NCBI GenBank assembly: GCA_051294905.1
Contig: CM119371.1
Coordinates: 13,952,001 to 14,016,000 of the forward strand
Direction: 5' to 3'
Length of the DNA: 64,000 bases
From: Botryllus schlosseri
Lineage: Eukaryota
Below, one piece after another: positions 9,198-64,000 of this stretch. The notes under the pieces were generated by a model. It searched no databases, was not told the DNA's origin, and worked only from the letters and a program-made list of their open reading frames with translations. How positions within the stretch are numbered: position 1 is the stretch's first letter; every line of letters begins with the position of its first letter. Made by a program: the position numbers and the translations under genes.

Positions 9198-9226
9198 TTG
9201 GTGTTGCAGTTCTCGAGTAGAGAGTA

Positions 9227-10052: not shown

Positions 10053-10354
10053 TACTCTAAATTTCCACTCAACAACATGTGTAAGTGGCAATTTCCAACA
10101 TAATAGCACTAAAAGTGGAAGTACAAAATTGATAATGGTCAATTCCAATATAATTCGGAAAATCTTTTGAGATTTGTAATGCCTACCCCCAGAATTGTCC
10201 AATATCTACATATGTTATTCTTTTTTAAAGTCTGAATAAATAAATAAAAATTTGAGAAATTTTCAGCGGTTCAAAAGATTACCGTTTGAAACTTTCTTGT
10301 CACTAGGTCGCACCGCATGGAGAAAACCATGAAAATCAATATTCTACGCTGCTT

Positions 10355-24796: not shown

Positions 24797-25794
24797 GATT
24801 AACAACCAAATGCAATATATATCAAATTTCACTACAATTATTTATTACTGCATAGAACTGTTATTGGAGTAAAGGTTTGTTAACATGAGTAATGCCTTTT
24901 GAAAGCTACCACCAAAGACCGGGTATTTGCTCGTCTAGTTCAGAGAGTAGACGGTGTATGCCTAAGGTATCACCTGTCCCATTTTGTGAAATACCAAATA
25001 TGCATAATCAATATTTTTCAGTGTTGTGCTATCACACCTACAGTATTGTGTTGAGCCCCTATGGAATCTCGGTTCATTTTTTGAAATAAATCCTGCATGA
25101 TGAAAACTCTTTTCTGTATAGAATAATTAAGTAATTAAACAGAAGATCCTGCGTGACGTTGCCATCAGTTGCCACCAATTCCACTCTGCGTGTTGAGTGT
25201 TGTGCTGATGACGAAATTGCGGGTATGATGACGAATAACCGCGTCTCAGAATATAGTAATACACGGCGTGGATCGCATACTCAGGTTTAGCGCGTTATGT
25301 ATGAACATGAACAATTAGTACATGCTCAGTTGAAGAATGGCTGTCCGACTCCGAGTATGCTTGGATAACTGAACTGGATGATAGATTTCTAGTTGTCTAA
25401 TTTCATTAAATTATAGCGAAATGCCAGTAATCTAATTGTAATGTTATATGAGCTCGTGGAGCTTGTGCACGATCTGCCCTAAGTCAACGGTATTTCGGTC
25501 CCGGCGCTCAGGCAAAATCCGCCGTTTCATAAACGGAAAATTGTTAATGGGCACACGGCTTTTTACCGGGTGGAAATTACATTAACCTGTCTGCAGAAAT
25601 GGCAGAAATGGGAAATAAAGGTGTTAATGCTACTCTAGTAATTCTATAAAATCGAACGAGTGAATTTATGTAAATTGTTACAAATTAGTGATGTGAATAC
25701 TTATAAATACCGATATATATTATGTGAATATGTTTGCAGGCGAACTATAATGTGGGGCAAGTAGAATAAAGACTGACATATAACGAGTCGGTAT

Positions 25795-37744: not shown

Positions 37745-40700
37745 TATATGCTACTGTAAAATCGCTATTTGTAGCGCTATTGTAGCGCTCTTCGCCCACT
37801 TAATTGGATTAAGCCACTGTTGCGTGACGCGAATCGAACAGCGCGAACGCATAAGTATCTCCATTCACTGACAAGCTAACATGGAAATTTGGGTCAACTC
37901 GGAATCATGACGAATAAGAATAGTTTCCCACTAATCAGAAAGTGTAACTCAATATCGATCAACGAGACGGCATCAATTCTGCAAGCCCCGAAGGGTAAAC
38001 AAATTAGTTTGATTCATACAAATATCAGAGGATTGCAATCTAATTCCCACCATGATGAGTTAAAAGACCTTATCGTTGACCTGAAGTCACCTACCTTCGT
38101 AGCAATTTCAGAAATAAACTTTTCAACCAAACCCACGCAAAACGTTGATATATCGGGCTACAACTTCGAGTATACTCAGGCACCGAAGTCAAAGAAATCT
38201 TACGGAGGTGTTGGTCTTTACATTGAAGAAAAAACTCCTTACGAAATTTGCAAGGACTACGATCTGAATGTCAAAGATTGCGAAGAGCTATGGCTGGAAG
38301 TTGATCACCCAATTGGAATTCACAAATCTTTTCTTGTGGCCGTATTATACCGTCATCCCACGAAAAACATGAACCAATTCGCAAAAGCGTTGGAGCGCTC
38401 ACTGGACAAAGTCAACAGCGACAAAAAGATGTGTTTCATTGCGGGAGATATTAACATAAACCTTCTAAAACACAAAGGCAACGAATACTCCAACGCCGTC
38501 AAATCCGCCGGTCTCTACCAAATGATCACCGAGCCTACACGCATAACCGAAAAGTCAAGGACTTTGATCGACCACATATATACCAACTCGCGCGACATGG
38601 AAATCATTCCATTTGTCATTTCGGCAAAAATCAGTGACCACAACCATATTGGTTTTCTATCACAAGAACAACAAAGGACACCCCCCGAAACATATCACCT
38701 CTGCAGACGACGAGAGTTAGTGGACGAAGAAGCGCTCGATGATGCCGCATTCAATCAATTTAAAACATCAGCCATCCCCCACATCTCGGTAAACAACTTT
38801 GACGAAAAATTTGTTGAGTTTATGTCTGCTATCAAATCACTGCTGGAACAATTTGCACCTCTACAGCGCCTTTCGAGAAGTCAAAGAAAATTGAAGCGAA
38901 ATCCGTGGATGACCACAAAGCTGATTCAACTTATCCGTAAACGTAACCGGTGGCATAACCGAATAGACACCAAGAACTGCCCAGAACATGAACGAGAAAG
39001 ATTTCGACGTTTCAGGAATCGCACCGTGCATCTTATTTCCAAGGCAAAAGCAAAGTACAATGAGAGATTCTTCAACAGACACATAAAGGACACTCGAAAA
39101 ACATGGTCAGGACTTAACTCTCTCCTACATCGAAAAAAAGGCCATAAGTCTGTTTCGGAAATTGTGAATTCGGATACCGGAAACAAACTTTCAGACCCGG
39201 CGGCCATCGCGAATCACTTCAATGAATATTTTTGTAACGTAGGCCCAAATATTGCTTCTTCTATTACAAAACCTGTGTCGGCCAGGTCAGAGGTGAGATC
39301 GATATCCCAGTCAATTGTGCTTGAACCTACGACCAAATACGAAGTAGAAGTAGCCATCCACAAACTGAAATCGCACAAGGCCGACGGCTATGACCAAATC
39401 CCATCATGGTTTTTAAAAATGATAAGCCTGCATATCGGTCAATATATGGCCCATTTTTTCAACTTCATGATAGAAAATGGAGTCTACCCAAGCTATCTAA
39501 AAAAAGCCAGAGTAGTCCATGTACACAAAGCTGGGGATAGAACTAATGTCACCAACTACCGTCCGATATCCGTTCTCCCATGCATCGGGATTGTATTCGA
39601 AAAGTTGCTCCTCTCCCGCCTGTCCTCATTCCTCGCCAAAATGTCTGTCATTTCCCTTCAACAATTTGGCTTCCGAAACAAACACCAAACCGCTCATGCC
39701 CTCCTAACAGTGGCCGAACAGTACTATGATATCTCAGAGAAGCGAAATGTGGGATGTAGCATTTTTCTCGACCTAAAAAAAGCGTTTGACTGCGTAGATC
39801 ATAAAATTCTCATCTCGAAATTGGCGCGTTACGGACTTCGGGGCCCACAACTTGAGCTCATGAAAAGTTACCTCACTGGTCGCCAACAAATGGTTGCGAT
39901 CTCAGACACCTTGTCCTCTCCTCACCCGGTGACCTGTGGTGTGCCCCAGGGCTCAGTACTTGGACCGGTCCTTTTCACCTTATATGTCAACGACATTTTT
40001 GAAACCTCCTCATTGAACACCACACTGTTCGCTGATGATACTCACCTCCTCTCTTCAGCATCTTCGACGGCCGAGCTAGATGCCCTGACTGGTGACCAAA
40101 TGCCCAAAGTCCATGAGTGGACGGCCCAGAACAACCTTTGCATAAACGCCTCGAAATCGCAATTGCTGACAGTAAATTCAAAAAATAACCTAACCGTTAA
40201 TATCGCTGGTCAGCCCGTTTCCAACACAGATAATGCCAAATATCTCGGAGTTTTACTGGACTCGAACATGTCCTGGAAGAGTCATATTCAGTCCCTAGAA
40301 ACTAAATTATCACCGAAGTGCGGCCTGTTCTACAGCCTTGGGCGCTTCATGCCAGCATGGGTTCTTCTGATACTCTTTAAATCCTTAATCCAATCGAAGT
40401 TACATTATGGCATCCTCTGTTGGGGGGCTGCCAGTAAAACTGCACTCAAGCCACTGCAGAAACTACAGCATAAAGTACTCCGAATCATAGCTAGGGCCCC
40501 AAAGGGGCCTGGCTGCCCATCGAATAAGTCGCTGCTGAAGAGATTCGGCGTCCTAAACATAGAAGATATGCGGAAACTAGAAATCGCCAAGTTTATGTAT
40601 CAGTTTCACTGCGGTCGTTGCCCCGAATATTTCAATGACTTCTTTACCTCTGAATCAAAAGCGCACAAGTACAACACACGCGCGTCCACGTCGTCCAAAT

Positions 40701-41119
40701 ATCATATGATCGACCGAAAAGATCATCGCTCCATCAAATATGCCGGACCTGATGTGTGGAACAGTATCCCGCCGGCCATCCGACAGTCGACGAGCATGTC
40801 CACATTCAAGTCGAAATACAAGCAATTACTACTAAATAAATACAGTCCATCCTCAAGATTACCGGACCACGACTGACCTATCGATCTCGCTTCCCATGAC
40901 ATGCCGCCCTATTTCTTGTCGCATTCTTTTTCTATACTATCTTCTTTACTTTCATTCAGTGTGCATGCCTCCTCTTTACATCGCCTAGGCCAAGGTGGGT
41001 GTCAGATTCCATAGACTACTCCTTGTCGCTTCGACATCTTCCTGTCTTTTCATTGTATCGCATTTTTGTGGTGTATTGAACTGATAAAATTGCTAATAAA
41101 CCAATGATGATGATGATGA
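37745..41119 (+). mobile_element. L2/CR1-group LINE with 3' UTR and (TGA)5 tail
   Basis: ORF2, 3' UTR with AATAAA, TGA microsatellite tail at 41105..41119; 5' boundary uncertain; no TSD found. Confidence 0.8.
37907..40876 (+). CDS. LINE ORF2 (APE endonuclease + reverse transcriptase), L2/CR1 group
   Basis: APE motifs HTNIRG, AISE, GDININ, IDHIY, SDH; RT motifs YRPISVL, FLDLKKAFD, GVPQGSVLGP, FADD; uninterrupted ORF. Confidence 0.95.
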   Translation: MTNKNSFPLIRKCNSISINETASILQAPKGKQISLIHTNIRGLQSNSHHDELKDLIVDLKSPTFVAISEINFSTKPTQNVDISGYNFEYTQAPKSKKSYGGVGLYIEEKTPYEICKDYDLNVKDCEELWLEVDHPIGIHKSFLVAVLYRHPTKNMNQFAKALERSLDKVNSDKKMCFIAGDININLLKHKGNEYSNAVKSAGLYQMITEPTRITEKSRTLIDHIYTNSRDMEIIPFVISAKISDHNHIGFLSQEQQRTPPETYHLCRRRELVDEEALDDAAFNQFKTSAIPHISVNNFDEKFVEFMSAIKSLLEQFAPLQRLSRSQRKLKRNPWMTTKLIQLIRKRNRWHNRIDTKNCPEHERERFRRFRNRTVHLISKAKAKYNERFFNRHIKDTRKTWSGLNSLLHRKKGHKSVSEIVNSDTGNKLSDPAAIANHFNEYFCNVGPNIASSITKPVSARSEVRSISQSIVLEPTTKYEVEVAIHKLKSHKADGYDQIPSWFLKMISLHIGQYMAHFFNFMIENGVYPSYLKKARVVHVHKAGDRTNVTNYRPISVLPCIGIVFEKLLLSRLSSFLAKMSVISLQQFGFRNKHQTAHALLTVAEQYYDISEKRNVGCSIFLDLKKAFDCVDHKILISKLARYGLRGPQLELMKSYLTGRQQMVAISDTLSSPHPVTCGVPQGSVLGPVLFTLYVNDIFETSSLNTTLFADDTHLLSSASSTAELDALTGDQMPKVHEWTAQNNLCINASKSQLLTVNSKNNLTVNIAGQPVSNTDNAKYLGVLLDSNMSWKSHIQSLETKLSPKCGLFYSLGRFMPAWVLLILFKSLIQSKLHYGILCWGAASKTALKPLQKLQHKVLRIIARAPKGPGCPSNKSLLKRFGVLNIEDMRKLEIAKFMYQFHCGRCPEYFNDFFTSESKAHKYNTRASTSSKYHMIDRKDHRSIKYAGPDVWNSIPPAIRQSTSMSTFKSKYKQLLLNKYSPSSRLPDHD

Positions 41120-42538: not shown

Positions 42539-44422
42539 TTAAGGCGGACGTTCGATGCGGACATTGCGGAGTTGCAGATCGGACGAAGCGAATCGAGCGT
42601 ATTTCCGAAGCAGGTATTTCTTGATCTCGTCTCGGTGTCCACGGAATAGTTCAGGATCTTGCGAGGACTTCAAACGGTGAATATAGAGTGGCTTAGCGGC
42701 TGCCACTCTGTTGCGGGGCAGTTTCACGGTCTTCGTCTCCCAGGGCAGAAGCGGTTGGAAACGTCCAGACACGATATGCGGCGGTGCAGTGTCTAGTACA
42801 TTCGTGTGAGCTTGACTTTCGGCATCATAGTCTTCAAAATACCCCGGTCTGTCATAACCAGGGGTGCGGATAGTATGACTGTTGCTTGCAGTAGCATAAG
42901 AAAAGACTCTCTGTAGTTGCACAAGGACTTCAGTATTGCCAGGCATGGCCGGCCCAGTGGAGACATTCACACTGTGCGGAGTGGCCATTTGGTCGGTGCC
43001 ATTAGGATTAGCTTTCGTCGGGAAGTTGACGGTTATATCGTCGGTATGATTGGGGGAATGGACTGGACTAGGTTGGACATGGGCATTTCCAGGAATTGTC
43101 GGTATGGTCAAGTGGGAAGTAAGTAACGCAGTGACCGCCGGCCCATTAACGGGTCTCTGGCTAACAACCACAGATGTATCAGATGCATGCGTGCGAGTTG
43201 TGTCAGAGGTAGTAGGTAAAGGTGAATGTTCGGTACGCACGACAACGCTTTCTGGGACAGGTTTGTCTAGTTTTCGTGGGGATAAGTGGGACAATTTGAT
43301 ACTGGCGATTTTCAGCTTGGTGAGAGCGTCGACGAGTTCTTTCTTTGCTTTGATAAATTTCATCTTTGCTTCAAATTCGACTTCGAGTCCTTTCATCTCT
43401 ATTTCAAGTTCGGCCTTGATTTGTTCTCTTGCGGCTTCCTTGGAAATGGTGGCACTTATGCGAAATGGACGATTCGATTTAGTTCTTCTTCGTAGTTGAT
43501 TGGAATTATAGAAGGTACGCTGGTATGCTATGAATAAGGCGCTGTTGGCATTACTTCGACAGCGGGTGATATCTGCGTTCAGCTTGTAAATTCGTGGTAG
43601 GATGGAACCAGTGGACTCGTAGGCTTGTGTTATCTGTATCAGTTTGTGTAATGTATCCTTGAGCTTAAGGATTAGTTCGTCTAGTTCGCATTTACACTCG
43701 GCGACGTACGTGTGTGATGATGCGTTCTTGACGGTGTGGAAGAAAGCGCGCTTAGCTGTCTTGTAAGCGGCGGTGGATTCTTTTATAACTTTGTGAACGT
43801 GCTGCTGGCTGAGCACCTCCGCTTCGGCTGCTGGCAGTAGTGTATTGGAATGCTGCTGGCTGAGCACCGCCGCTTCGGCTGCTGGCAGTAATGTATTGGA
43901 ATGCTGCTGGCTGAGCACCTCTGCTTCGGCTGCTGGCAGTAATGTATTGGAATGCTGCTGGCTGAGCACCTCTGCTTTGGCTGCTGGCAGTGATGTATTG
44001 AAATGCTGCTGGCTGAGCACCTCTGCTTCGGCTGCTGGCAGTAATGTATTGGAATGCTGCTGGCTGAGCACCGCCGCTTCGGCTGCTGGCAGTAATGTAT
44101 TGGAATGCTGCTGGCTGAGCACCTCTGCTTCGGCTGCTGGCAGTAATGTATTGGAATGCTGCTGGCTGAGCACCTCTGCTTTGGCTGCTGGCAGTGATGT
44201 ATTGAAATGCTGCTGGCTGAGCACCTCTGCTTCGGCTGCTGGCATCGTCGGCTGCGTATCGACGGGCTGCTGGCTGAGCACCTCTGCTTCGGCTGCTGGC
44301 AGTGATGTATTGAAATGCTGCTGGCTGAGCACCTCTGCTCCGGCTGCTGGCAGTGTCGAATCCGTGTTGACTTGCTGCTGGCTGAGCACCTTTGCTTCGG
44401 CTGCTGGCAGTGATGTATCCAT
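42539..44422 (-). CDS. Element B single ORF, homologous to the element A ORF
   Basis: STAAYKTAKRAF vs SSAAYQKAERAF, QRPVNGPA in both, VKLPRN vs VKPPYN, DPELFR vs EPEFFR, both end in RPP; ATG at 44422 aligns with the element A ATG. Confidence 0.78.
   Translation of the reverse strand: MDTSLPAAEAKVLSQQQVNTDSTLPAAGAEVLSQQHFNTSLPAAEAEVLSQQPVDTQPTMPAAEAEVLSQQHFNTSLPAAKAEVLSQQHSNTLLPAAEAEVLSQQHSNTLLPAAEAAVLSQQHSNTLLPAAEAEVLSQQHFNTSLPAAKAEVLSQQHSNTLLPAAEAEVLSQQHSNTLLPAAEAAVLSQQHSNTLLPAAEAEVLSQQHVHKVIKESTAAYKTAKRAFFHTVKNASSHTYVAECKCELDELILKLKDTLHKLIQITQAYESTGSILPRIYKLNADITRCRSNANSALFIAYQRTFYNSNQLRRRTKSNRPFRISATISKEAAREQIKAELEIEMKGLEVEFEAKMKFIKAKKELVDALTKLKIASIKLSHLSPRKLDKPVPESVVVRTEHSPLPTTSDTTRTHASDTSVVVSQRPVNGPAVTALLTSHLTIPTIPGNAHVQPSPVHSPNHTDDITVNFPTKANPNGTDQMATPHSVNVSTGPAMPGNTEVLVQLQRVFSYATASNSHTIRTPGYDRPGYFEDYDAESQAHTNVLDTAPPHIVSGRFQPLLPWETKTVKLPRNRVAAAKPLYIHRLKSSQDPELFRGHRDEIKKYLLRKYARFASSDLQLRNVRIERPP
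43796..44418. repeat. Mostly 51-bp (17-aa) in-frame tandem repeat, 12 units with a 4-unit higher-order duplication
   Basis: PAAEAEVLSQQHSNTLL-type units; units 4-7 recur as units 8-11. Confidence 0.95.
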
Positions 44423-44767
44423 ATCGACGTCAGTCGGCACTCGTATATTTTAACTCTTATGTCGCGTAGGATCAGTTCTCGATAGAACTGGACTGGAATA
44501 TTTGTTGCAAGTAACGACCGATATCTAACTGACCGTTAAAGTCCAGACACAGTGGGTTTCCGTAGCTTGTATTGCGAGTAGGATTAACTAACTGGTCTAT
44601 AACGTATCGTTAAAATATACGCTGGCAATTACTCTAAATGGAAGATATTACGTTAATGCAATGCTACACGAAATGCGACACAAATTCCCTGTTTACTGTA
44701 CGACGTCTGTCTCTAAAAAGGGCGAAAACGTGGTCGTCGCTTCTCTCGAGTTAAGAATTAAGTAGAG

Positions 44768-47301
44768 CAGTGCTTTTCAACCTTTTTGAGCTTCGTTCGC
44801 ACTTTTTTTGTAAAATAAATTTCATTCGCACAAACTAACCGAATATTGATATGCAAAAAGAAGACGAAAATACAACATTTATTTGCTCAGATGTGCAACA
44901 AATTGGCTACTATGTATCTTAAGCTACCAAGTGTCTCATGAAAAATGCTACTATTTTCGCTCGTTTTGATTTCAGCTATTTCACTAAAACCCTTCTCCAA
45001 GTTAACTAGTGCTTGGATGGTCTGGTCTTAAAGCAGGGGTCACCAACACGCGGCCCGCGGGTCGCATGAGGCCCGCGATGTCATATTTTGCGGCCCGGGA
45101 TCTGTTTTCAGAAGAACGCCCAGTACTTAAATTTATTTCTGTTTAAAAATATTGTCGACGTTGTTCAAAATATGCTATTCTCCCTTTAGAAACGCGAAAC
45201 GCCCTCCTAAAACGTGAAACCCCATCCTTTTGAAATGGCCCTTCAGACCCTAATACTCGGTTGCAATTCAATAAGTCGTATTATCAGTGTTGCGCACGGC
45301 CAAATAACGAAAGGCGTGATACCAATTAGCGAGATTCGTCATTGCGCATTGCACTGCAAATGTAACGTGACACGAGCGACACGGTCTCCCGCTGAGATAA
45401 TTGCGAAATCACGTCATTTATTGCCGCGCGCTCGGCAAGCGTTGCTAGCCTGATCTATCGCGTCTCCAACAGGGCTAGTTCCGCTGGCTTGAATAATCAC
45501 ATCTGCAATTGGCGGTATGTGCACGATATCATCGCTTGTCTACACAATCGCATCTGCATTGACTTGGTGCGCACGATATCATCGCTGGCCTGCACAATCG
45601 CATCTGCAATAGGCCTAGTATACGAAAGATATCGCTAGCCTAACTACCAAGTCTTGGGCCTACCATACTTTGGCCGGGGCTACGTAAGACGCATTGGTCA
45701 GCGCGCGTATTTTATTGTTTGATGCCGTGATAAGCGCGGGTATTCAATTGTTCACAACAGATCAGGCAGTCGCTAATTAACATCTCTTTCGGACTCGTCG
45801 ACAAGCTTATCATACACGTATAATCGTCAACACGATGATGTTGTATAATCGTTATTTATGCATGTTCTTAACCCTAATGAATTGATGCTATATACCAGGG
45901 CCATAACTGCCGCACCCCAAACCCAATTTATGCAATATTTTCAAAAATATTTCGCGCTAGGCGCAATTTCAAGTCGCCAAATATCTTGATTATTGGGTGC
46001 TCTTCCCCCAAGAGAAAATACGCAAGATTTATAGAAATGGACATATTGGCGTAGGCCATTACCGCGGCACGAAGCACAAAGACATATAACGTTTTAGGCC
46101 ATGAAACATGCGACTCCAAGAAGTGTGCCAGAACGATCGCAGCGAGACAAACACACAAGACAAATACCATCCTTCAGGAAAAAATTAAATGCCATTGAAG
46201 AAATACCAATCCGAAACCGTGTGATCTTTCAGTCTAGTACGTTTGAGCGATTCTATATTTTTGATATAGCAGACAGGAGGTCACGAAATAACATCATGTA
46301 ACAAAGTCATACCAACGGGTCCGTCCGCCCGAAGATGTTCGATCATTATTTACGGACTGTACAGTTTCAAAGACACCTCACTCAGCTCTACCGGTAAAAC
46401 TCATTACGTGAGCAGAGAGGACAAGAAATTGATAGCAATATATATGCAATTCCCGATCTTATTGACCGATTTTATCATGAATCATCGAAAATTTTCGCGC
46501 TTAGCGCTAGCTCACTGAAGTTCAGTTTATCGCCATATGGGGGCCCAGGAACAACGTTTGGGGGGACTGACGAAGTGCTGTTACGGCCCTGTATATTACT
46601 AAATTCGGTAAAAATCACACCCGCCCCTTTATTTCAACCACCCTCCCCCTTTTTTCGGCTGGCTTCGCCGAACAGACAGATAGTCCTGGCAGTGTGAACC
46701 CAAATTATACCCTTTGCAGTATATACTTTAATAACCCCTGAAAGGGTAAAATTTGCGTTACTGTAACTTGCAAATGGCAGTCTGTAATGATAGTATTTAC
46801 TACTGTCCTCGTGCCTAGCACTAATCGAACAGGTATTACGCAAGTATTGATGATTGTTTAGCGAAAGTAAGCAGAAAGTGAATTTAACGTCATTTTCCCA
46901 GCCTCCGACGGGCTGCTATATGTCTGGTCTGTCACTACACCAGCTTCCAAGCCAGGGTTTTGGTTACGTAATAATTATAGTGCGAAAATATCAATTCACT
47001 ACGGCTTGTGAGAGCTACGACTAGTGGTACGTCCCAAGTTAAACGAGTTTTTACAATTGCGTCGCAACAACTAAGGTTACACTGCGCTTGAATTTCGTAT
47101 TATGTTTATTTGAAAAGCAATTATTATTCACGATTTTCATTCGCACTCATCCGGGATTTTCATTCGCATCGTTCGCACCACCTTCGTCATTCGCACTCAT
47201 CCGGGATTTTCATTCGCACCGTTCGCACCATGTTCATCATTCGCACTGCAAATTTTTTCATTCGCACAAGTGCGAACCGTCACACAGGTTGAAAAGCACT
47301 G
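44768..47301. mobile_element. Non-autonomous hAT element inserted in the 5' LTR of element B
   Basis: TIRs CAGTGCTTTTCAACC/GGTTGAAAAGCACTG, 8-bp TSD AAGTAGAG; the other LTR shows the empty site. Confidence 0.93.
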
Positions 47302-48019: not shown

Positions 48020-49892
48020 CAGTGGTTCTTAACCTTGCCTCCAGCGCCCCCAGGGGGCGCTGGCGATTTTGAAAGGGGGCGGAAAAGCTCAGGGGACGAT
48101 ATGGGGGGCGCTGGGCTCAGGGGGGCGGTATGGGGGGCGCTGGAGAAAAATGGCTTCGCAGTAGATGATGTGGTGGTAGGACATATCCTTGATGAGTATT
48201 CAGAGAAAATGAACACCGAAAACTTCGTTATATATAGCCTACAAAAGACATATAGGTTTAATTGTCCATGGGCGCCTAAATGACTGGCACCGAATATTCC
48301 TGTGTTGGCAATCTGAACCCCAGAAGAGGAATTCCATCCGGCAGGGAAAAATTATATGCCAGTGAAGAAATACCAATTTGAAATCGTTTTCGTATTTTAG
48401 TTTAGTACGATTGGGCGACAGGGATATCTATAAAACTAGATATTCTTGTTGGGCGATATCCCTTTTGGGCGATTCTATATTTTTTGATATAGCAGACAGG
48501 AGGTCACGAAATAACATCATGCAACGAAGTCATACCAACGGGTTCGCCCGCCCGAATATGTTTAATTATTAGTTACGGGCCCTACAGTTTCCAAGACACC
48601 TCACATTGTTCGCTCCACGTTTTGATGAGTCTGCGCACACTCAATAAACTCACTGCGCAGACCCTTGGACAACAGTGCGTAACGACTAAAAAAGGGTCAA
48701 AACTTCGGATTAGTTGTGCGCAACGTAGATTTTCTGTGCACAGATACCGTGTCAGCACTGCGCACGTGAGCAGCTTAGACGGAACATTGCACCTCACTCA
48801 GCTCTACCGGTAAGTCTGGTAACGTGAGCAGAGAGGACAAGAAATTAATAGCAATATATATGTAATTCCCGATCTTACTGACCGATTTTATCATGAATTA
48901 TCGAAAGTTTTCGCACTGGCTCGCTAAACAGTACAGCTGATTTCGTGGCAAAATGAACAACGTGATGGGGGCGGTCGGATTATCACCCTATGGGAGCCCA
49001 AGACCCAAGTTTTATCGGGGGGCCTGGCGAAGTGCCATTTCGTTCCTGCCAACGGGTATACGCCCGAAGATGTATAAATATTATTGAGGGGTCCTACGGC
49101 CCTACCTTTTCAATCACACAACACTCAGCTCTACCGGTAAATTTGTTTACGTGAGTAGAGAGAGGATAAATTTGATATCAATATACATGCAATTCCGGAT
49201 CATATTTACCAATTCAATCATTAATTATTGAAATTTTTCGCGCTTCGCGCGTCTAGGCGGGAGTACCTGGCTCAGTAAATGGACACCCAATTGGCCGACT
49301 AGTATCAGCAAATAGTGGATAGCCGAAAGGGGGTCTGGGGGCGAAGCCCCCCGGAAGTTTGGTTTATCACCCGAGGGGGGGGGGGCTAAGACCAACGTTT
49401 TTGGGGGGCTGACGAAGTGCTGTTACGGCCCTGGTAACGAATTAATTGTACCTACGGGCACGCCCGAATATGTTTAATTATTAATTACGTGCCCTCTATC
49501 TTCCCATACAACAGCTCATTCAGCGCTACTGGTAAATCTGATTACGTGGGCTGAGAGGATAAAAAGTTTATAGCGACTTATATATGTAATTACCACCTAT
49601 TCATTCATGCATTATAGAAAATTTTGTTACCTAGGGCGACCATGCCACACGAACTTTGCTGACCATCGAAATCACGCTACGGGGTTCTTGGGGGCGAAGC
49701 CCTCGGAAGTTTGGTTTATCACGCTATGGGTGCGCAAGGCAATAATTTTTAGGGGGGATTGCGAAGTGCTGTTACGGCCCTCTCTCTTACTCATTGTCTT
49801 TATTACATTCCTTACAATATGCGGTTGGGGGGCGCTGGAGCACGATAAATTTTGAAAGGGGGCGCTGGAGGAAAAAAGGTTAAGAACCACTG
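48020..49892. mobile_element. hAT (Charlie-like) non-autonomous element
   Basis: TIRs CAGTGGTTCTTAACCTT/AAGGTTAAGAACCACTG; TSD ATCTAGCC. Confidence 0.92.
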
Positions 49893-51356: not shown

Positions 51357-54300
51357 CAGTGTTGGTATCAAGTCACTACCTTCGAGTCACGAGTCATTTC
51401 GAGTCATTGCACATTTTGACTCGAGTCAAGTCAAGTAAGTCGATTTTCGAAAGTGACTCGATTCAAGTCAAGTCACTCGATTTTTGCAGGTGACTCGAGT
51501 CAAGTTAAGTCAAGTCACAATTCAAGTCAAGTTGCCTTTCCGAAGTATCAGCCATGATCACGTCTTTGTATTTTGCTAGGTGTCTGAAATACACATTGAG
51601 TGGTGATTGATTCTTATCCGATGAACGAATATAGAGTTATAAATATGCACGCAAGAAGGCGCTGTATCGCTCACATACGTATTAGAGGTCGACCGATATT
51701 GATTTTACAGGCCGATACTAATACCGATATATCGACGCAAGGCCGATAACCGATATCATAGGCCGATATTAATATGGAAGGCGCGGAAAACAATTTCATC
51801 AAAATATTATATATTAGGCATGGTGGCACTTGTGCATGTCACAGAAAGCTGAACAACAAAAGAGAAAACTGAAATTGAAAATAATTATTGCCTAGTTGTG
51901 CACATTCGTTGAAATTTGGGATAACCCAAAAAGCAAAACATGATACAGAATTTCTAATCAGTCCAAAAAAGGTAGATTGTAATGCAGGAAGCATAGTTGC
52001 TTTGCATGCTCACCCAGTTAACCTCGTCCTGCAAGGGTAAATCTGTCGTATATAGCCCTTCGCATCGTCGTTTTTATGAGATTGAGAACACCGAGCATTG
52101 AATTTCCAATATTTTTGAAATTTTTTCAAATATAAAATGTCGGCCGCCATATCGGCCTTCATAAGCCGATATCGATAATCGGGAAAGCTGTAAATATTGG
52201 CCTCGATAATCGACCATGCCGATAATCGGTCGACCTCTAATACGTTTAACTGTTGAACTACGTAAGTTTCTATTTACCGGTCAAAATAAAGAATAGAGAA
52301 ACTAATTGATAAGATGCAATACATTCTCCAATTACAAATTGATATGATACAATTCGACCCTGCGTCAATAGTTCAGGACTATACAAACTATATTGCAGTG
52401 TTGGGATCAAGTCACTACCTTCGAGTCACGAGTCATTTCGAGTCATTGCAAATTTTGACTCGAATCAAGTCAAGTCATTCGATTTTCGAAGGTGACTCGA
52501 GTCAAGTCAAGTCACTCGATTTTTGGAGGTGACTCGAGTCAAGTCGAGTCAAGTCAAGTCAAGTCACGAGTCAAGTCACAATTCAAGTCAAGTTGCCTTT
52601 TTGAAGTGTAAGGCATAATTACGTCATTGCATTTTGCTAGCTGTCTGAGTTACAGATTTAGTGGTCATTGATTCTGAACCAAAGAACGAATATATAGTTA
52701 AATATACACGCAAGAAAGCGCTGTATCGCTCACATATACGTAGCACTGCTGAACTAATGAAGTAGCTTAATTGCACAGCCTCAGTTTATAGTTACCAGCC
52801 AAAATAGAGAATAGAGAAACGAATTGATAAGATGCACTACATTACCCATTTACAAATTGATATGATACAATTCGAGGGCGCAAATGGTTGAGGACTATAT
52901 AAACTATATTCGAATTCGATTTCAATAAAACAAAAGGTTTGGTTAAGGTAAGAACAGAGAATAGAAATAGACATTATGTTATTCAATTATTTTACTATAC
53001 TAGTTCACGATAACGTAAGTTGTAAGTTTGGATCACTTCGCTTGCGGTCAATTTATGTGTGAAAGAACAATGGAGGCTAAGTAAAACGCACGATCATTGA
53101 ATGATTGGTCGCTCTCACGGGTTACACCAGCATTTCGCAAACAATCCGACCATATGCAAGATACACTAAATTTTATCGACACCGATTACTTGATGACTTG
53201 AAATTGACTCGTGAATTTTGCTTCGAGTCACGAGTCAATCCACATTTCTGATACGCCGAGTCAAGTCAAGTCAAGTCATTTTAGCCAAGTGACTCGAGTC
53301 AAGTCAAGTCATACGAAAAAGGTGACTCGAGTCATCCCAACACTGCTATATTGTATATTCGAATTCAAGCTCCATAAAACAAGAGATTTGGTTAAGGTAA
53401 TTAGGAGCAGAACAGAAATAGACCTTTTGCAATTAAATTACTTTACCAAACTAGTTTACGATAACGTAAAGCTGTAAACTTCGATCACTTCGTATGCCCT
53501 CAATTCTTTTGTGAGAGAACAATGGAGTCTCGGTAAAGCGCACGATCATTGCATGATTGGTCGCTCTCATGGGTTACACCAGCATTTCGCGAACAATCCG
53601 ATTACAGCCTGACTGTATAGACTCTATACAGTCAGGCTGTAATCGGATCAGCACATAGCCTACCTGTTTGATGCTGGTGTGATCAGACCAGTGTTGGGAT
53701 CAAGTCACTACCTTCGAGTCACGAATCATTTCGAGTCATTGCACATTTTGACTCGAGTCAAGTAAAGTCAATCGATTTTCGAAGGTGACTCGAGTCAAGT
53801 CAAGTCACCCGATTTTCGGAGGTGACTCGAGTCAAGTCGAGTCAAGTCAAGTCAAGTCACGAGTCAAGTCACAATTCAAGTCAAGTTGTCTTTTCGAAGT
53901 ATGAGGCATGCTTACGTCATTGCGTTTTGCTAGCTGTCTGAAATACAGATTGAGTGGTCATTGATTCTGGACCTATGAACGAATATAGAGTTAAATATAC
54001 ACGCAATAAGGCGCTTTATCCCTCACATATACGTAGAAATGCTAAACTATACGTAAGTAATTGCATAGCCTCGGATTATAGTTACCAGCCAAAATAGAGA
54101 ATAGAGAAACGAATTGATAAGATGCAATACATTACCCATTTACAAATTGATATTAATACAATTCCAGCCTGCGCCAATGGTTGAGGACTATATAAACTAT
54201 ATTGGAATTCAATTTCAATAAAACAAGGTTTGGTTAAGTTAAGAACAGAGAACAGAAATATACGTTTTGCTATTAAATTACTTTACTATACGCGTTTACG

Positions 54301-55036
54301 ACAGCGTAAGCTTCGATCACTTCGTTTGCGATCAAGTTATCTGTGAGAGAACAATGGAGGCTCAGTAAAACGCACGATCACGATAATTGAATGATTGGTC
54401 GCTTTCACGGGTTACACAAGCGATTCACATACAATCCGTACCTATACAAGATAAAATTATTTTTATCGACATCGATTGCTTGATGACTCGAAATTGACTC
54501 GTGAATTTTGCTCCGAGTCAGGAGTCAATCCACATTTCTGATATGCCGAGTCAGGTCAAGTCAAGTCATTTTAGCAAAGTGACTCGAGTCAAGTCAAGTC
54601 ATACGAAAAAGGTGACTCTAGTCTGACTCAAGTCAAGTCATGACTCGAGTCATCCCAACACGGTCCCTTTACGGTCGTATCGATCATTCCTGTCTGATAC
54701 CGAATACTGTGCAGTGTGCATGCATTTTTTCTGTACCACCATCGTTGCCGCCAGTCTTTCATGTATTTTGGTTGGATGAAAATAAAGACTCTCTATCTCT
54801 CTCTCTCTCCAACCATGTGCAAGATACAGTGATTTCTGTCGACACCGATTACTTGATGACTTGAAATTGACTCGTGAATTTTGCTCCGAGTGAAGAATCA
54901 AACCACATTTCCAATACGCCGAGTCAAGTCAAGTCAAGTCATTTTAGCAAAGTGACTCGAGTCCAGTCAAGTCATACGAAAAAAGTGACTCAAGTCTGAC
55001 TCGAGTCAAATCATGACTCGAGCCATCTCAACACTG
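51357..55036. mobile_element. hAT MITE (CAGTGTTGG ends, AGTCA/GACTC repeats) with nested copies
   Basis: TSD CAATGCTG; nested same-family copies at 52396..53345 (TSD CTATATTG) and 53689..54663; nested TAGAGGTCGACCGAT MITE at 51683..52239 (TSD ATACGTAT/ATACGTTT). Confidence 0.88.
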
Positions 55037-55609
55037 CAATGCTGAAGTAGGCTACATATTGACGTTTTGAACGTCGCCAAATGTATCAACTGGGGCAATC
55101 AAATGATATAATAATAATAATCTCCTCAAATCAATATCTTCCGTCGCTTTGCCAACAATTTCGACCAGGACTTGCAAGGGAATATATAAGCTAACGCCTT
55201 GAGGGTCCAGGCCAGACCGGACAATGTATTCGGTGTCTGAGTATTGCTATGTTGCTATAAAGCTGAGTGTAAAACGGATTGCTATACTTGCTATACCGAT
55301 ATTACCCCATTAACGAGTTAGACAGCAGTAGCCAACACCCCAATCAGTGATGAAATCGAGATTCAACCCATACGTCTGCTAGCTTTTTACATCAGACAGC
55401 GATATCAACTTCATTGATTGGTTGAATATGCATCCTTCACTGACTACCTACATGTAGTGTATTTCGCTCGTGATGTTGTGAGATTCCGGGTGAAGCTCAC
55501 AGCAGAGAGTCACTACATATTCGAGCAAACTTTTGTAACAAAGCAAGTCAAATTTTTGAGATTGTCGACGTTCATGTATGTTTAGTGTTGATTTTTTATG
55601 CTGCCAGCG

Positions 55610-55631
55610 CAGGGATATCTAGATATCCCTG
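55610..55631. mobile_element. 22-bp palindromic hAT-type micro-insertion
   Basis: CAGGGATATCTAGATATCCCTG, perfect palindrome flanked by direct repeat TGCCAGCG. Confidence 0.8.
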
Positions 55632-56428
55632 TGCCAGCGCCATGCATATAGTGGCCCGCAGTTGCAATGCAATAAATTTCAACCAAAGGTGTCCTAATAA
55701 AATGAAAACTGTAATATATGAAAAAGATTCATAGTGCAAAACCTGCCAACGTTCATTTGTGAACGTGAACCTCTAAATTTCTCAGGTTCACACACAGAAC
55801 GCGAACAAGAACCTTACGTTAACACCATCCCTAGTTATATGCCAGGTTGTGGTCTCGAGGGCTGACTAGTATTGAATACAAATTGGTGACAGAAGGCTAA
55901 TCAAATGACATTTGATATTTTCTCCATGACCAGGGCCGTAACAGCAGTTCGTCAGCCCCCCCAAAACGTTGGTCTCAGGCCCCCATATGATGATAAACCA
56001 AAGTACTGGGGGCTTCGCCCCCCAGACCCCCTCAGGTTACACACTGTTTATCGCTACTTATCATCTACTTTGGGGGCGTGAGCTGAATCAGCTTTTCTCG
56101 TCTGCACGCGCCAAGCGCGAAAAATTTCCATGATTCATAATTGAATCAGTCAATATGATCGGGAATTGCATACAAATTGCTATCAATTTTTATGCTCTCT
56201 CGGCTCACGTAATCAGATTTACAGGTAGAGCTGAGTGAGGTGTGTTGAAAAAGGTAGGACCCCTCAATATAATAATTAAACATCTTCGGGCGTATACCCG
56301 TTGGCAGGGACGAAGCAACACTTCGTTAGGCCACCCAAAAAATCTTGGTCTTGGTCTTCCATAGGGGGATAAACCTACCCCCATCACGTTGTTCGCTTTT
56401 GCCACGTAATTAGTCGTACTGTTTAGTG

Positions 56429-57936
56429 CAGTGGTTCTTAACCTTGCCACCAGCGCCCCCCCCCCCAGGGGGCGCTGGCGATTTTGAAGGGGGGCGGAAA
56501 CGCTCAGGGGGCGATATGGGGGCGCTGGGCTCAGGGGGGCGGTATGGGGGCGCTGGAGAAAAATGGCTTCGCAGTAGATGATGTGGTGATAGGACATATC
56601 CTTAATGAGTATTCAGAGCAAATTAACACCGAAAACTTCGTTACATATAGCTTTCAAAATACATATAGGCCTAGGTTTAATTGTCCGTGGGCGCCTAAAT
56701 GACTGACACCGAATGTTCCTGTCTTGGCAATCTGAACCCCAGAAGACGAATTCCATCTGGCAGGGAAAAATTATATGTCAGTGAAGAAATGCCAATCTGA
56801 AATCGTGTGCGTCTTTTAGTTTAGTACGATTTGGCGACAGGGATATTCCTGTTGGGCGATATCCCCGTTGAGCAATTCTATATTTTTTGATATTGCAGAC
56901 AGGGGGTCACGAAATAACATCATGCAACGAAGTCATACCAACGGGTTCGCCCGCCCAAATATGTTTAATTATTAGTAACGGGCCCTACCGTTTCCAAGAA
57001 ACCTCACAATGTTCGCTTTAAGTTTTGATGAGTCTGCGCACACTCAACAACTCGCTGTGCTGACTCCTGGACAACAATGCGTATCCACTAAAAAAAGGTA
57101 ATAACTTCGGATTTGTTGTGCGCAACGTAGATTTTCTGTGCGCAGAGACCGTGTCAGCACTGCGCACGTGCGCAGCTTAGAGGGAACATTGCACCTCACT
57201 CGGCTCTACCGGTAAATGTGTTTACGTGAGCGGAGAGAGGATGAAAATTAATCTCAATTTACATGCAATTCCCGATGATATTGTCCAATTCAATCATTAA
57301 TTAGTTAAATTTTTCGCGCTTCGCGCGACTAGGCGAGAATAGCTGCCTCAGTAAATGGACACCCAATGTAGATACCTAGCAGGCTTTCAGCAAATAGAGG
57401 ACAGCCTAATGGGGGTCTGGGAATGAAGTCCGCCGGAAGCTTGGTTTATCACCCGATGTGGGCCCAGGACCAACGTTTTTTGTTAGGGGGGGCTGACGAA
57501 GTGCTGTTACGGCCCTGGTAACGAATAATTGTACCTGCGGGCACGCCCGAATATGTTTAATTAGTAATTACGTGTCCTTTATCTTCCTATACAACAGCTC
57601 ACTCAGTTTATCGCGACTTATATATGTAATTACCACCTATTCATTCATGCATTATAGAAAATTTTGGTACCTAGGGCGACCAGGCCACACAAACTTTGCT
57701 GACCATCGAAATCACGATAGGGGGTTCGTTGGGGCGAAGCCCTCAGAAGTTCGATTTATCACGCTATGGGTGCGCAAGGCAATCGTTTTTAGGGGGTTGA
57801 CGACGTCCTGTTACGGCCCTCCCTCTTACTCATTGTCTTTATTACATTCCTTACATTATGAAGTTGGGGGGGGGGGCGCTGGAGCACGATAATTTTTGAA
57901 AGGGGGCGCTGGAGGAAAAAAGGTTAAGAACCACTG
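56429..57936. mobile_element. Second copy of the Charlie-like hAT element
   Basis: Same TIRs as 48020..49892; TSD GTTTAGTG. Confidence 0.92.
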
Positions 57937-57994
57937 GTTTAGTGAGCCAGCGCGAGGCGCGAAAATTTACGATAATTCATGATAAAATCGGCAA

Positions 57995-58572
57995 TTAACA
58001 ACAGAAACTCGCCTACGTATATATAGGCTGTAAATAATAGTTACCTGTGGTGTTTTATCGCTATTACGAGCTATTTGAAAGTTAAAATGTCGATTTTCCG
58101 GTAATATGTATGTGGCATTAAATTTGTAAGTTTAGGCGTAAATCAAAACATGATTTTAGGCCAACATTTGAGTTGATATAATCTCTTTTATTCTTGAAGG
58201 TCGCGACGAAACATCCTTCATTGGCATGCTGTAGCTTAGCTTATAGTACACAACAAAACAAGTTAACAAATTTGAGTTTTTGAGCGTATGTCTCATAGGT
58301 CCCATGGTGGTGTGCCTTTGGACCCACCGGGTGGGGACCAATGACACGTTCGAGCTACAAATTTTAAACTTTCATAAATATTTTTTGAAAAGGCTGATAT
58401 TCATGTAAATGTCCGCGATAAGTAGAGCTTGTATCGAAGCAGGGATATATAGAAGTTCTATATATCCCTGTATCGAAGTGTTGAGAGAGCCAAAGATCTG
58501 CTATTCTCGACTGAAGATTTGAGAGCCAGAGATCATTTTGCACTTTTTGATCCATCGGTACCACATCTCCCC
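57995..58572 (-). mobile_element. Partial inverted copy of the GGGGAGATGTGG MITE
   Basis: Reverse complement of about 59894..60436. Confidence 0.85.
58440..58470. mobile_element. 31-bp palindromic hAT-type micro-insertion
   Basis: CAGGGATATATAGAAGTTCTATATATCCCTG with TSD TATCGAAG; empty site in the paralog near 59988..59996. Confidence 0.88.
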
Positions 58573-58716
58573 TATGTAGCTGTACAGTTACTCACGTACT
58601 TTATTAGCAGTTCTACGCGTGCGTTAGGGATACATAGCCTACACCGTCTTTTAGCATGTATATTTAACTAGATCATCACTCATACTTCGAAAATTGAATT
58701 TGACTTGACTCGTGAC

Positions 58717-58909
58717 CAATGTTCCCTCTAAGCTGCGCACGTGCGCAAATGCGCACTGCTTTCACGGTCTCTGCGCACAGAAAATCTAAGTTGCGCACAA
58801 AAAATCCGAAGTGATGACCTTTTTTTGGTCGTTACGCACTGTTTTCCAAGGCTCTGCGCAGTGAGTTGGTGAGTGTGCGCAGACCAGTCAAAAATTAGAG
58901 GGAACATTG
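58717..58909. mobile_element. ~190-bp hAT MITE (CAATGTTCCCTCT TIR); related copies near 20559, 48605, 57007 and 63458
   Basis: TIRs plus 8-bp TSD CTCGTGAC. Confidence 0.88.
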
Positions 58910-59893
58910 CTCGTGACTTGACTTGACTTGACTTGACTCGAGTCAAAATCTGCAATGACTCGAGATGAATCGTGATTCGAAAGTAGTGACTTGATCCCAA
59001 CACTGCTGTAGAGCGACCTGGAACGCCGAATATCAACGAAATGAGCGAGGCGCTCACTATCGATATTTCCATAGATCATTGACTGATGGCCACTTTCCAT
59101 CTATGTACCGACATAGAGAGAGAGAGTCTTTATTTTCATCCAACCAAAATACATAGCAACAGACAGCAATGATGGCGGTACAGAAAAGATGCACGCACTT
59201 GCACAGTATTCGGTATTAGATAGGAATGATCGATACGGCCTTGAGGGTGATTGGGTGAACTAGTCTGATCACACCCGCATCGAACAGGTACATTTGACTC
59301 TATTCGGTCTGGCTGTAAAAATGTTAGTTAAAATACGAAAATAAAAATAAAAATGAACGATGGAAGCAAATGATCAATGAAGCAGCGTCTGGGTGAGGTA
59401 TAGGGCAACAGTGCTTACGAACGATTAATAGTTCGACTTCGTTTAGGTCAGAGGTCTCAAACTCAAATGTGGTCGCGGGCCAATTTCTCGTTTTTGATGG
59501 CGCCGCGGGCCGCAGCGACAATAATAGGGGTTTTCAATGTATTTCCAAGTATAGGCCTTATTTTACGGGACCTTGCAGACTGGCATACAACACGCAAAGC
59601 GAAATGTGATTTACTATTGTGAATTCACGCCAGGTATGAAAAATATCACATTTTCAAATGTTTGAATAAAATTGTTGTTGTACTTGGCATAGTCTGTAAA
59701 AATATGTAGTTATAGACACCATGCGAGAGTATAAATACATCTCATGATATCGTAAAAGCTGTCGCGTTATAATTTGGAAGCTAGCGGACATTTGACGTGC
59801 CGCATTTATTGGTAGATGATATAAAAGTTTAACAAATATATTGATCTGATCGAAGCATTGGAGCAATACATCCTAATCTGGGTTGCAGGCATA

Positions 59894-60860
59894 GGGGAGA
59901 TGTGGTACCCATGGATCAAAAATTGCAAAATGATCTCTGGCCCTCAAATCTTCAGCCGAGAATAGCAGACTTTTTGCTGTCTCAACACTTCGATACAAGC
60001 TCTACCTATCGCGGACATTTACATGAATATCCGCCTTTTCAAAAAATATTTATAAACGTTTAAAATTTGTTGCTCGAACGTGTCATCGGTCCCCACCCGG
60101 TGGGTCCAAAGGCACACCACCATGGGACCCATGAGACATACGCCTAAAAACTCAAATGTGTTAACTTGTTTTGTTGTGTACTAACTACTAAGCTAAGCTA
60201 CAGCAAGCCGATGAAGAATGTTTCGTCGCCACCTTCAAGAATAAAATAGATTATTTCAATTGAAATGTTGGCATAAAATCATGTTTTGATTTACGCCTAA
60301 ACTTACAAAATTAATGCCACATACATATTACCCGCAAATCGACATTTCTACTTTCAAATACCTCGTAATAGCGATAAAACACCACAGGTAACTATGATTT
60401 ACAGCCCATATATAAGTAGGGGAGTTTCTGTTGTTAAGTGATTAGTTGGTCCATCTATTTTGCTTGATTTGGCTATGGTACCATACCTCCCCCACCCCAT
60501 AAATATTGTAATTAACTTGAAAATAGTCCACTCGAAGATGGTATTGATTTAAAAAACATGTGTTATTATATACCCTGATACAAACCCTATACTTCACATC
60601 AAAAATTATGGCAGGTTTGTTAGTCTGAAAGGTAATATAGAAAAATGCAAATGTCGATCCAAATTTACTTTACACCCCCTAAAACGTAAATCATTCGTCA
60701 CAGACCCCATAACTTACGCAGGTCGAATTTTTTTGCATATGAGGAAAGATTATGTCAGCATGTAATTGTAGACAAATTCACGGAGTGTAATCATGGAATT
60801 ATCCTGGAGAATTTTTCAAGTATTTTCGGTCCCAGTGATCCATCGGTACCACATCTCCCC
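59894..60860. mobile_element. TA-flanked MITE with GGGGAGATGTGGTACC TIRs
   Basis: TA|GGGGAGATGTGGTACCCATGGATCA ... TGATCCATCGGTACCACATCTCCCC|TA. Confidence 0.88.
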
Positions 60861-62160: not shown

Positions 62161-63789
62161 CATCTCATGACTTGAATGTGAACCTACAGTCGGATAGCCG
62201 GCGGGATTAGAACCGCTTTTCCATAGCAAAACTATCAGTTCCATCCCATCATGCGGTCGAATGCTAATGCTGTCGAAAATATATACCTACTGTGTGTGAT
62301 GTATCAGTATGAATCAAGCTCTCGACATCTCATCCGCGTAAACGCTCTCTTAAAAAAGCCTTACATTGGGCCGTGCTACAAGTCGGCAGCCACGGAATAT
62401 TGGCTTGTTGTAAATGACCATTTTAGTCGACGAACACCATAAATACCACAAACAACACAATTAAGCTCTCTACCTACGCCAAACGTATAGTTCAATTTGC
62501 AGTTTTTGACAGTCTATGCGAATGGCGAACATATTATCAACTACTTACGTACTTGAGTAGGCCTATATTTAAAGCCAGCCAATTCTACTTGAAGTAGTTT
62601 CAGGTTGCTTTTAAAAGTACTATTTGTACTTGAGTAGATTTTTGCGTCGCCAGTTCTACTTCTACTCGAGTAGCTCTCTTGACCACTTTTTCCACCTCTG
62701 CGTAAAAGTAATGTTAACCACTGTATCATGGCTTGACGTCGCGATGTCTAGGCCTACAGTATAACAGGCGGGTAAGCATCAGACCCGGTCAGAGGTCAAA
62801 GTAGTCAGCGGTGTTGGTACTCGTGTAGAACTAGAAGTAGCGAAATCGTCACGAAGGTCTACCCAAGGGCATGTAAAACTATCGAAACTACTTCCAGTGA
62901 GAAATGAAGGTCTATAAGTAGGCTATTAGTGAGTAGCCTAGCTATTGGGCCGACGCCAAACTGGATTGAAATATCGCATACAATCAGTGGTGGCTTTTGG
63001 GGTGGGCGAGGTGGGCGGTCGCCCGGGCTCCCCCTGGTCGAAGGGCCCCCCTCTTAGATCAATCATCAAATCTCTGCATTTGTTAGAAAAGTCCCATATC
63101 CCGATAATCATCGAGTCTCTGCATGCGGTAGAGGTACTTAGTTTCGATGCATATCCTTGCAACCATGCAATAATAGATATGACCTAATCCAGCGCCTGGC
63201 TCAAACCTTGACGTAGTGTGCTGGCTCATTACTAACGTCAGCCGATAGCTTTCCGGATTGGTGAGGGTCTATTTAGCCCGCAGCAGTTGTATCGCTATCC
63301 TATTATTTCACGCTACATGCCATACATCTTCAACATGAAGACATGAGCTATAATAGTTACCTAGTTCGCTTCTTTTTATAATTTGACAATGTCTGATACA
63401 AGAAGGCTCAGGAGCTAGAGCAATTCAACACTACGGGCTGCTTCAAAGCCTTGTTATCAATGTTCCCTTTAATTTTTGACTGCGCAGTGCGCACATTCAG
63501 CAACTCACTGCGTAGACCCTTGGACAACAGTACGTAACGACAATAAAAGGTCATCACTTCGGATTTTTGGTCCGCAACATGGATTTTCAGTGCGCAGAGA
63601 CGTGCGCGTTTGTGCATGTACGCAGCTTAGAGGGAACATTGCTTGTAATAGTGTCATATAGGCTACACATAATGTATTCCCGTACCTTAAGGCACACTCA
63701 TATCAAGTTGGTAACAATGAAAGCGAAAGGGGGTCTGGGGACCCGCCTCGGAAATCTCGCCCAGGGACCGCCCAATCGTAGGGCCACCT

Positions 63790-64000
63790 CTGCATACAAT
63801 CAATGTCCATATCAAAAAGAATTATCAATTCATTTATCAGTTTAACGGACGCTCCCAAAAAATGTCCGCTAATCAGCTCGTGCAACTTGGAGTCATTCCT
63901 GATAATGGGGTGAGTTGTGGAAAAATTGCCGGAGAGATTAGTCAAACTCGATCAAGGCGAGACTTCATGCAAATATCCCTTCTTCTCCTCATATGTCTCG
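63790..64000 (-). pseudogene. KLHL-like fragment (BACK/linker), disrupted and running off the window
   Basis: THPIIRNDSKLHELISGH..LIILFD..DCM matches the 4585 gene; frameshift near 63960; homology ends near 63790. Confidence 0.75.

Follow-up and report, generated by a model that had tools for sequence, protein, structure and literature searches.

Short hairpin inserts with 8-bp target duplications in Botryllus schlosseri are probable transposon excision scars

A stretch of 64,000 nucleotides of Botryllus schlosseri DNA (GenBank assembly GCA_051294905.1, contig CM119371.1, positions 13,952,001 to 14,016,000 of the forward strand), referred to here as the window and numbered from its first base, contains a family of short palindromic inserts, each built from two inverted copies of a single end sequence and set between the copies of a target duplication. 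These are real inserts, each with an 8-bp duplication, and their sites are empty in paralogous copies of the surrounding sequence. The inserts, their duplications, the empty counterparts and two of the host elements are as follows.

55602..55609, plus strand: left copy of the 8-bp duplication TGCCAGCG, exact
55610..55631, no strand: 22-bp perfect palindrome, equal to two 14-nt tips overlapping at the 6-nt self-complementary TCTAGA
55632..55639, plus strand: right copy of the 8-bp duplication TGCCAGCG, exact
58432..58439, plus strand: left copy of the 8-bp duplication TATCGAAG, exact
58440..58470, no strand: 31-bp hairpin (folded, a 14-bp stem and a 3-nt loop)
58471..58478, plus strand: right copy of the 8-bp duplication TATCGAAG, exact
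59988..59995, minus strand: empty paralogous site of 58440, with a single TATCGAAG and a 39-bp alignment gap
48411..48418, plus strand: left copy of TTGGGCGA, with more copies at 48449-48456 and 48465-48472
48419..48464, no strand: 46-bp compound insert in which a 30-bp hairpin is followed by the duplication word again and by an additional right tip
56838..56867, no strand: second copy of the 48419 event, a 14-bp core followed by the duplication word and a second right tip (30 bp)
46243..46250, plus strand: empty paralogous site of 48419 and 56838, with a single TTGAGCGA
48020..49892, no strand: non-coding host element with CAGTG ends and an 8-bp duplication, bearing the 48419 insert
56429..57936, no strand: second copy of the CAGTG-ended host element, bearing the 56838 insert

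The palindrome at 55610 and the insert at 58440 had been reported, with their duplications, in an earlier sequence-only reading of this DNA, and both stand as described: the duplicated word is exact on either side of each, and the inverted paralog of the second has one copy of that word and a gap of 39 bp, equal to the 31-bp insert plus its 8-bp duplication. The 30-bp and 14-bp units placed by the same reading at 48419 and 56838 also exist, but only as the inner parts of longer inserts. Measured against the empty paralog at 46243, positions 48419-48464 are a 46-bp insert (a net gain of 54 bp) and positions 56838-56867 a 30-bp insert (a net gain of 38 bp), each core being followed by a 16-bp repeat composed of a right tip and the duplication. 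Because both have the extra right-tip repeat, and the right arms of both show one and the same point change, they are one event borne by two host copies (83-87% alike), and to judge by these alignments the window holds three independent insertion events rather than the four originally proposed. The 14-bp core at 56838 is, on the same comparison, the product of a later 16-bp loss between two GATAT repeats; the duplication there, read directly, is imperfect, agreeing at seven of eight positions with the middle copy and at five of eight with the outer one. The two CAGTG-ended hosts are presumably hAT-like, given their end motif. The host of the 58440 insert consists of long inverted arms (57992-58576 and 59890-60440, 91-93% alike) around a 1.3-kb middle, and is possibly a foldback element.

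Exact CAGGGATAT starts occur on the plus strand of the window only at the four insert sites; on the minus strand there are two, which form the right-hand termini of the inserts at 55610 and 58440. No longer or intermediate-length element with these ends was found in the window, compared with the three short events. Stable hairpins are formed on folding by 55610-55631 (z-score -3.7) and by 58440-58470 (-7.5), the 48419 core reaching only -1.7. The window was also compared with Markov simulations of itself, counting inserts no longer than 60 bp whose 8-bp duplication is exact and whose ends are inverted over 8 bp: it holds six, three from the hairpin family and three from a satellite-like repeat, versus three in total across 30 simulations. 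A second chance test found three in the window (two from the hairpin family) and none in 12 simulations.

The same element is present in metagenome contigs. A scan for two 9-bp ends spaced within 18-40 bp yielded 118 loci, from six of the 64 parts of the metagenome collection, and the element, with CAGGGATATCTAG as its arm, is present in all 27 loci of five data-set prefixes. Selection by the arm alone, without regard to duplications, picked out 26 of these 27, with L055 added by eye. A duplication adjoins the match in 15 of the 26 arm-defined loci and in 2 of 91 others (p=2.7e-10), the two being L055 and L078; among viral contigs, used as a control, none of the 40 testable paired-end matches (of 41) has a duplication beside it. 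Matches outside the family have lengths spread across 18-40 bp. Four loci (L061, L065, L075 and L092) are copies of one site, their flanks 92-96% identical, leaving 24 independent sites. We omitted L061, L075 and L092 as duplicates of the L065 event and window 56838 as a duplicate of 48419; L009 and L151, at contig edges, were omitted from the duplication tests, L021, L039, L110 and L112 from the 8-bp target test described below, L055 from the arm-mismatch count, and L078 as a member of a different family. Duplications adjoin the outer borders at 22 of the 24 sites (11 exact over 8 bp, five matching at 7/8 and four at 6/8, and two of 7 bp). At L112 the duplication fits only with a one-base gap, and L039 is a family insert without a duplication, at which the five bases on each side are inverted copies of each other.

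No credible similarity to the window was found in 17.9 kb of metagenome sequence outside the element (best E 0.013), and with nothing credible in common there, the metagenome loci are probably from another species. Next to L025 lies an exon for a portion of a tRNA dihydrouridine synthase, its best named match being from the ascidian Phallusia (78% over 46 aa); this points weakly to a host that is probably another sea squirt. The insert at 58440-58470 is identical to that of L069 at 29 of 31 positions, both changes being mirror-symmetric. Another data set has, in eukaryote-like sequence at L078:401-436, a hairpin of a different kind; it is 36 bp long, with arms of 15 bp and a loop of 6 nt, its 8-bp duplication is exact, and it may be a scar from a related family whose tip is longer.

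Twenty of the metagenome inserts are simple, and 19 of these are 28-34 bp long, 13 of them 31-32 bp, with one of 40 bp, in a scan that covers simple inserts of up to 40 bp and tips of at least 9 bp. So sharp a mode would suit a 31-32-bp hairpin that is itself mobile, a minimal miniature inverted-repeat transposable element (MITE) moved by a Tol2-like transposase that is encoded elsewhere and makes 8-bp duplications at a palindromic target, the other forms being decayed or mis-repaired. Such a unit would also suit the few, closely related types of centre, the exact recurrence of two insert sequences, each at two unrelated sites, the identity of the 58440 centre with those of L069 and L094 from other data sets, and the failure of any longer element to turn up, although the scan was blind to longer elements. 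Copies of a MITE master would be expected to be uniform; this family has 25 distinct sequences at 27 sites (24 metagenome sites and three window events), although most centres are only one or two edits apart. Change is concentrated at the junction: at arm positions 10-13, 19 of 152 bases (12.5%) differ from the common arm, compared with about 4% per copy in the duplications, or roughly three times the duplication decay. Seven of the 20 simple lengths lie off the 31-32-bp mode, about one insert in five is compound, some with copies of their own flanks, and identical junctions recur in fly P scars too. Known hAT and P transposases need sequence past the first 16 bp of each end: Tol2 requires 200 and 150 bp of end sequence (PMC10368747) and P transposase requires sites within its 31-bp terminal inverted repeat (TIR) (PMC7776569), so a 31-bp unit should not move. 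We consider a mobile hairpin improbable; were it real, it would be far below the end lengths that hAT or P elements need, and common to at least two sea-squirt-like genomes.

Inserts of compound form are present at four of the 24 metagenome sites (51, 67, 75 and 98 bp) and in one of the three window events. In L026 the two tips enclose copies of the site's own left flank, and in L021 DNA of the right flank separates two right tips that differ from each other, which points to a free end in mid-insert; in L065 a pair of 19-nt tips encloses a copy of the arm, 13 nt long, and L105 is a nest of tip copies. In the compound inserts, and in L112, one tip sequence can be followed for 16-20 nt inward from either outer end. 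Given such a tip, joins at microhomologies of 1-6 nt would reproduce the 22-mer as well as the frequent 30-32-mers, a test that reuses the tips of the same loci and shows consistency only.

In our view the inserts are probably immobile scars of a P-type long staggered cut, some 17-20 nt deep, sealed by end joining. A longer cut-and-paste transposon would land, making the 8-bp target duplication, and then leave by a staggered cut of the P-element type, its outermost 17-20 bases staying behind as single-stranded tails on both flanks. The cell would join the two tails tip to tip: one tail priming on its partner, or folding back on itself, would give the recurrent 30-32-bp hairpins, a join at the self-complementary TCTAGA would give the 22-mer, and the 46-98-bp forms would result from further synthesis. 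We infer the longer parent, the depth of the cut and a joining of the polymerase-theta type, the repair enzyme being a candidate suggested by the form of the junctions. Scars would then spread passively as host repeats move or duplicate, as appears to be the case for 48419 and 56838 and for L061, L065, L075 and L092. The inserts also resemble the nearly precise excision of bacterial transposons.

The closest parallel is offered by donor sites of the Drosophila P element. P transposase cuts 17 nt inside the TIR on one strand (PMC7776569), 17-nt 3' tails are left on the donor flanks (PMC5466332, PMC2895639), and the donor junctions read as 8-bp duplication, tip of up to 17 nt, tip and duplication, up to 34 bp (PMC5466332 Tables 1-2), with microhomology joins and with identical products that recur (9 and 10 isolates of single products; PMC5466332). 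Templated insertions are found at 24% (PMC5466332) or 13% (PMC2895639) of fly junctions. Like P{wa} junctions, the inserts described here keep the duplication on both sides of inverted tips that stand head to head, mostly within 34 bp, have microhomology joins and recurrent products, and carry templated insertions in about one case in five. The break-adjacent copies in L021, L026, L065, L105 and window 48419 resemble those of synthesis-dependent microhomology-mediated end joining, in which snap-back and loop-out synthesis account for inverted and direct junction copies (PMC2943611). P-group duplications are 7-9 bp long, usually 8 bp (PMC3698922), as are those at 22 of the 24 metagenome sites (20 of 8 bp, matching at no fewer than 6/8) and at all three window events; likewise, long tips of the TIR at either end are kept between two intact duplications (within 18-40 bp, tips of at least 9 bp). 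The zebrafish Pdre/THAP9 elements are also P-like elements of a chordate, with short CA-starting TIRs and 8-bp duplications, and excise in cells; their TIR sequence is different, and flank deletions after excision are reported there (PMC10983969).

The hAT transposases, in contrast, hairpin the flank and free the full transposon end (PMC5499845), and the sequence-only reading was correct that ordinary hAT footprints lack TIRs. The match to P donor junctions, the freeing of the full end in hAT excision and the end requirements of Tol2 together lead us to read the inserts as immobile scars. Of the two origins first put forward, extremely small mobile units or the collapse of a longer element to its tips, it is the recurrent reduction of a longer element that we retain, the mobile units being disfavoured. 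The inserts work like P-element scars, a likeness that does not establish membership in the P superfamily. Unlike P{wa} products, they are natural, fixed inserts in a marine animal, with a different end sequence, and in most of them a long arm is paired with one of 13 nt; unlike Drosophila P, they have 18-20-nt tips on both sides of compound junctions and T, not A, at target position -3. In the literature searched, which lay mostly outside subscription journals and did not extend to repeat databases, natural scars of this tip-to-tip kind were met with nowhere but in fly assays, and the end sequence was not mentioned in any relevant context.

Several observations weigh against P-type scars. The same tip is present for 18-20 nt on both sides of the compound junctions, exceeding the 17 nt of the fly enzyme. 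Single-tip scans did not find the parent, giving 2 viral matches and 19 prokaryotic ones (the latter against a rough expectation of about 17), all unpaired and at chance level, and no Pfam match, transposase or other, was found among 53 open frames of at least 68 aa between 44.5 and 64 kb. With a scan blind above 40 bp, the size ceiling was tested only up to 40 bp, and the closeness of most simple centres, one or two edits apart, is what decayed copies of a master would also show. In wild-type flies most repair first copies the sister chromatid, pure tip joining having been recovered without Rad51 (PMC2895639), and with repair often starting in this way pure tip joining need not dominate. The target motif, finally, is nearer to that of Tol2 than to that of the fly P element, as set out below.

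The depth of the cut can be approached from both classes of insert. A P-type stagger of 17 nt would suit the simple sizes, as 17+17 less 2-3, provided that the ends are unlike each other beyond base 13; tails of 17 nt that differ in this way and pair over 2-3 complementary bases would likewise yield inserts of 31-32 bp. The compound junctions favour identical ends of 18-20 nt, and it is identical 18-20-nt tails that fit the compound forms best. At five of the 24 sites (L021, L025, L030, L066 and L105) position 11 is C instead of T at one end only, and the junction is atypical; the two ends of the parent may differ there, perfect hairpins then arising by fold-back copying.

The target motif was examined at 23 sites (46 half-sites) against a background of local flanks. 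It is palindromic, which supports insertions made by a transposase. Its positions -3 and +3 are T and A at 25 of 46 half-sites (z=3.7), as in Tol2 (consensus in PMC2753552 and PMC4825651) and unlike the fly P element, whose A at -3 and T at +3 (PMC2577343), common also to 1360 (PMC3276498), is present at 10 of 46 (z=-1.2). Consensus matching gives z=5.3 for Tol2 versus 2.3 for fly P. T2/A7 (z=2.7) and T3/A6 (z=3.3) are enriched as well. Count matrices of P (z=4.6) and hobo (z=3.6) both score above background, and the target test therefore leans to hAT without deciding. The CAGGG ends and 8-bp duplications that had been taken as hallmarks of hAT are likewise not enough to secure that label, since duplications of 8 bp are made by P elements too, and these are the group known for donor sites that retain long tips of the TIR. 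A hAT origin is nonetheless conceivable, since the target motif fits Tol2 best.

An alternative is a parent of ordinary hAT type (Tol2- or Ac-like) or of foldback type that excises cleanly. Its tips would be rebuilt by gap repair that copies about 19 bases from the sister chromatid and then aborts, or would be left by the collapse of a long hairpin, through slippage between short repeats close to its ends. The inserts resemble hAT elements (Tol2, Ds, hobo, Hermes and their MITEs) in the 8-bp duplication, T2/A7 and a 14-bp weakly palindromic motif nearest that of Tol2, the fit to which holds in detail, positions -3/+3 and -1/+1 included (PMC2753552). The tip contains self-complementary words of 6 nt, and joining at these would yield exactly the 22- and 14-bp forms; the 14-mer did come from a later 16-bp deletion, the window abounds in non-coding elements with 8-bp duplications, and L105, whose two ends read alike over some 24 nt, could represent an end of the parent that includes an internal repeat. 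Yet aborted copying gives no obvious reason for an equal depth in 19 of 20 cases, slippage does not place flank copies inside an insert as in L026 and L021, and no intermediate-length copies accompany the three short events of the window. Duplications of 7 bp at two of 24 sites also contrast with hobo, whose duplications are 8 bp in 1196 of 1198 cases (PMC3276498). As direct scars the inserts differ from those of hAT, which leave no TIR, in consisting of TIR-like tips with intact flanks; as mobile units, those of the window (22-46 bp) are without the long subterminal DNA that hAT ends need. Taken jointly, the two routes of tip rebuilding from such a parent seem to us unlikely.

Public sequences from four of 24 runs listed, all of them contigs, were compared with positions 55480-58620. 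A joint from 58429 to 58469 that skips 39 bases, and so matches the empty 58440 site, is present in all four, as are empty-type joints from 56828. Loose ends before 55632 occur in at least 271 X1 and at least 116 X19 records, with consensus agreement of only 0.63 and 0.61; they appear to resemble the upstream flank, and other copies of the 55610 host repeat look empty. All three hosts are, on this comparison, high-copy repeats that seem to be empty elsewhere, and the insert sites all lie in non-coding repeats. An artefact, in which sequencing or assembly would have reduced long palindromic elements to their tips, is conceivable, as the comparison sequences are contigs and the matches listed include empty alleles, with neither a filled nor a full-length one among them. 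The same anatomy is found, however, in five separate metagenome assemblies; paralogous copies (48419 and 56838; L061, L065, L075 and L092) have one junction in common and then diverge by point changes; and the duplications have decayed while compound junctions hold rearranged flank DNA. We regard an artefact as highly improbable.

The long staggered donor cut has been described as a peculiarity of Drosophila P transposase (PMC7776569), and for chordate P-like elements no mapped cut depth or tip-to-tip scar was found in the portion of the literature searched. If the inserts are scars of such a cut, a chordate genome records both its depth (possibly 19-20 nt rather than 17) and the way in which breaks are sealed in the germline, and the parent would provide a direct test of whether the chemistry of the staggered cut is conserved across the P superfamily. 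The combination of a P-like scar with a Tol2-like target motif would mean either that P-group motifs are more varied than the fly element suggests or that a non-P transposase cuts in the same manner. Scars of this kind, which mark the former sites of elements, are easily taken for tiny MITEs or hairpin motifs.

Other parts of the window are repeat-rich as well. Non-coding elements with CA-starting inverted ends and exact 8-bp duplications, several of them nested, lie at 44768-47301, 48020-49892, 52396-53345, 56429-57936, 62985-63792 and 58717-58909, and the empty form of the 56429-57936 element is present in all four public runs. No Rfam family was found between 44 and 64 kb, and a relaxed scan of the window for other scar families gave 27 matches, mostly from one satellite-like repeat, none of which was accepted. 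Long frames with 63-bp and 51-bp tandem repeats, at 16498-19404 and 42539-44449, lie between long direct repeats and are without a Pfam match. A 53-bp palindrome at 53596-53648 (25-bp arms, 3-nt loop) is without a target duplication and begins where the similarity to the repeats at 53028-53149 and 54312-54438 stops. A cluster of intronless BTB-BACK-Kelch genes with broken copies, one of them inverted, occupies 1687-11503 and 23168-24841, and a search for Kelch homologs found none from a named animal. A 998-aa frame at 37880-40876 encodes an endonuclease and reverse transcriptase of a LINE-type element.

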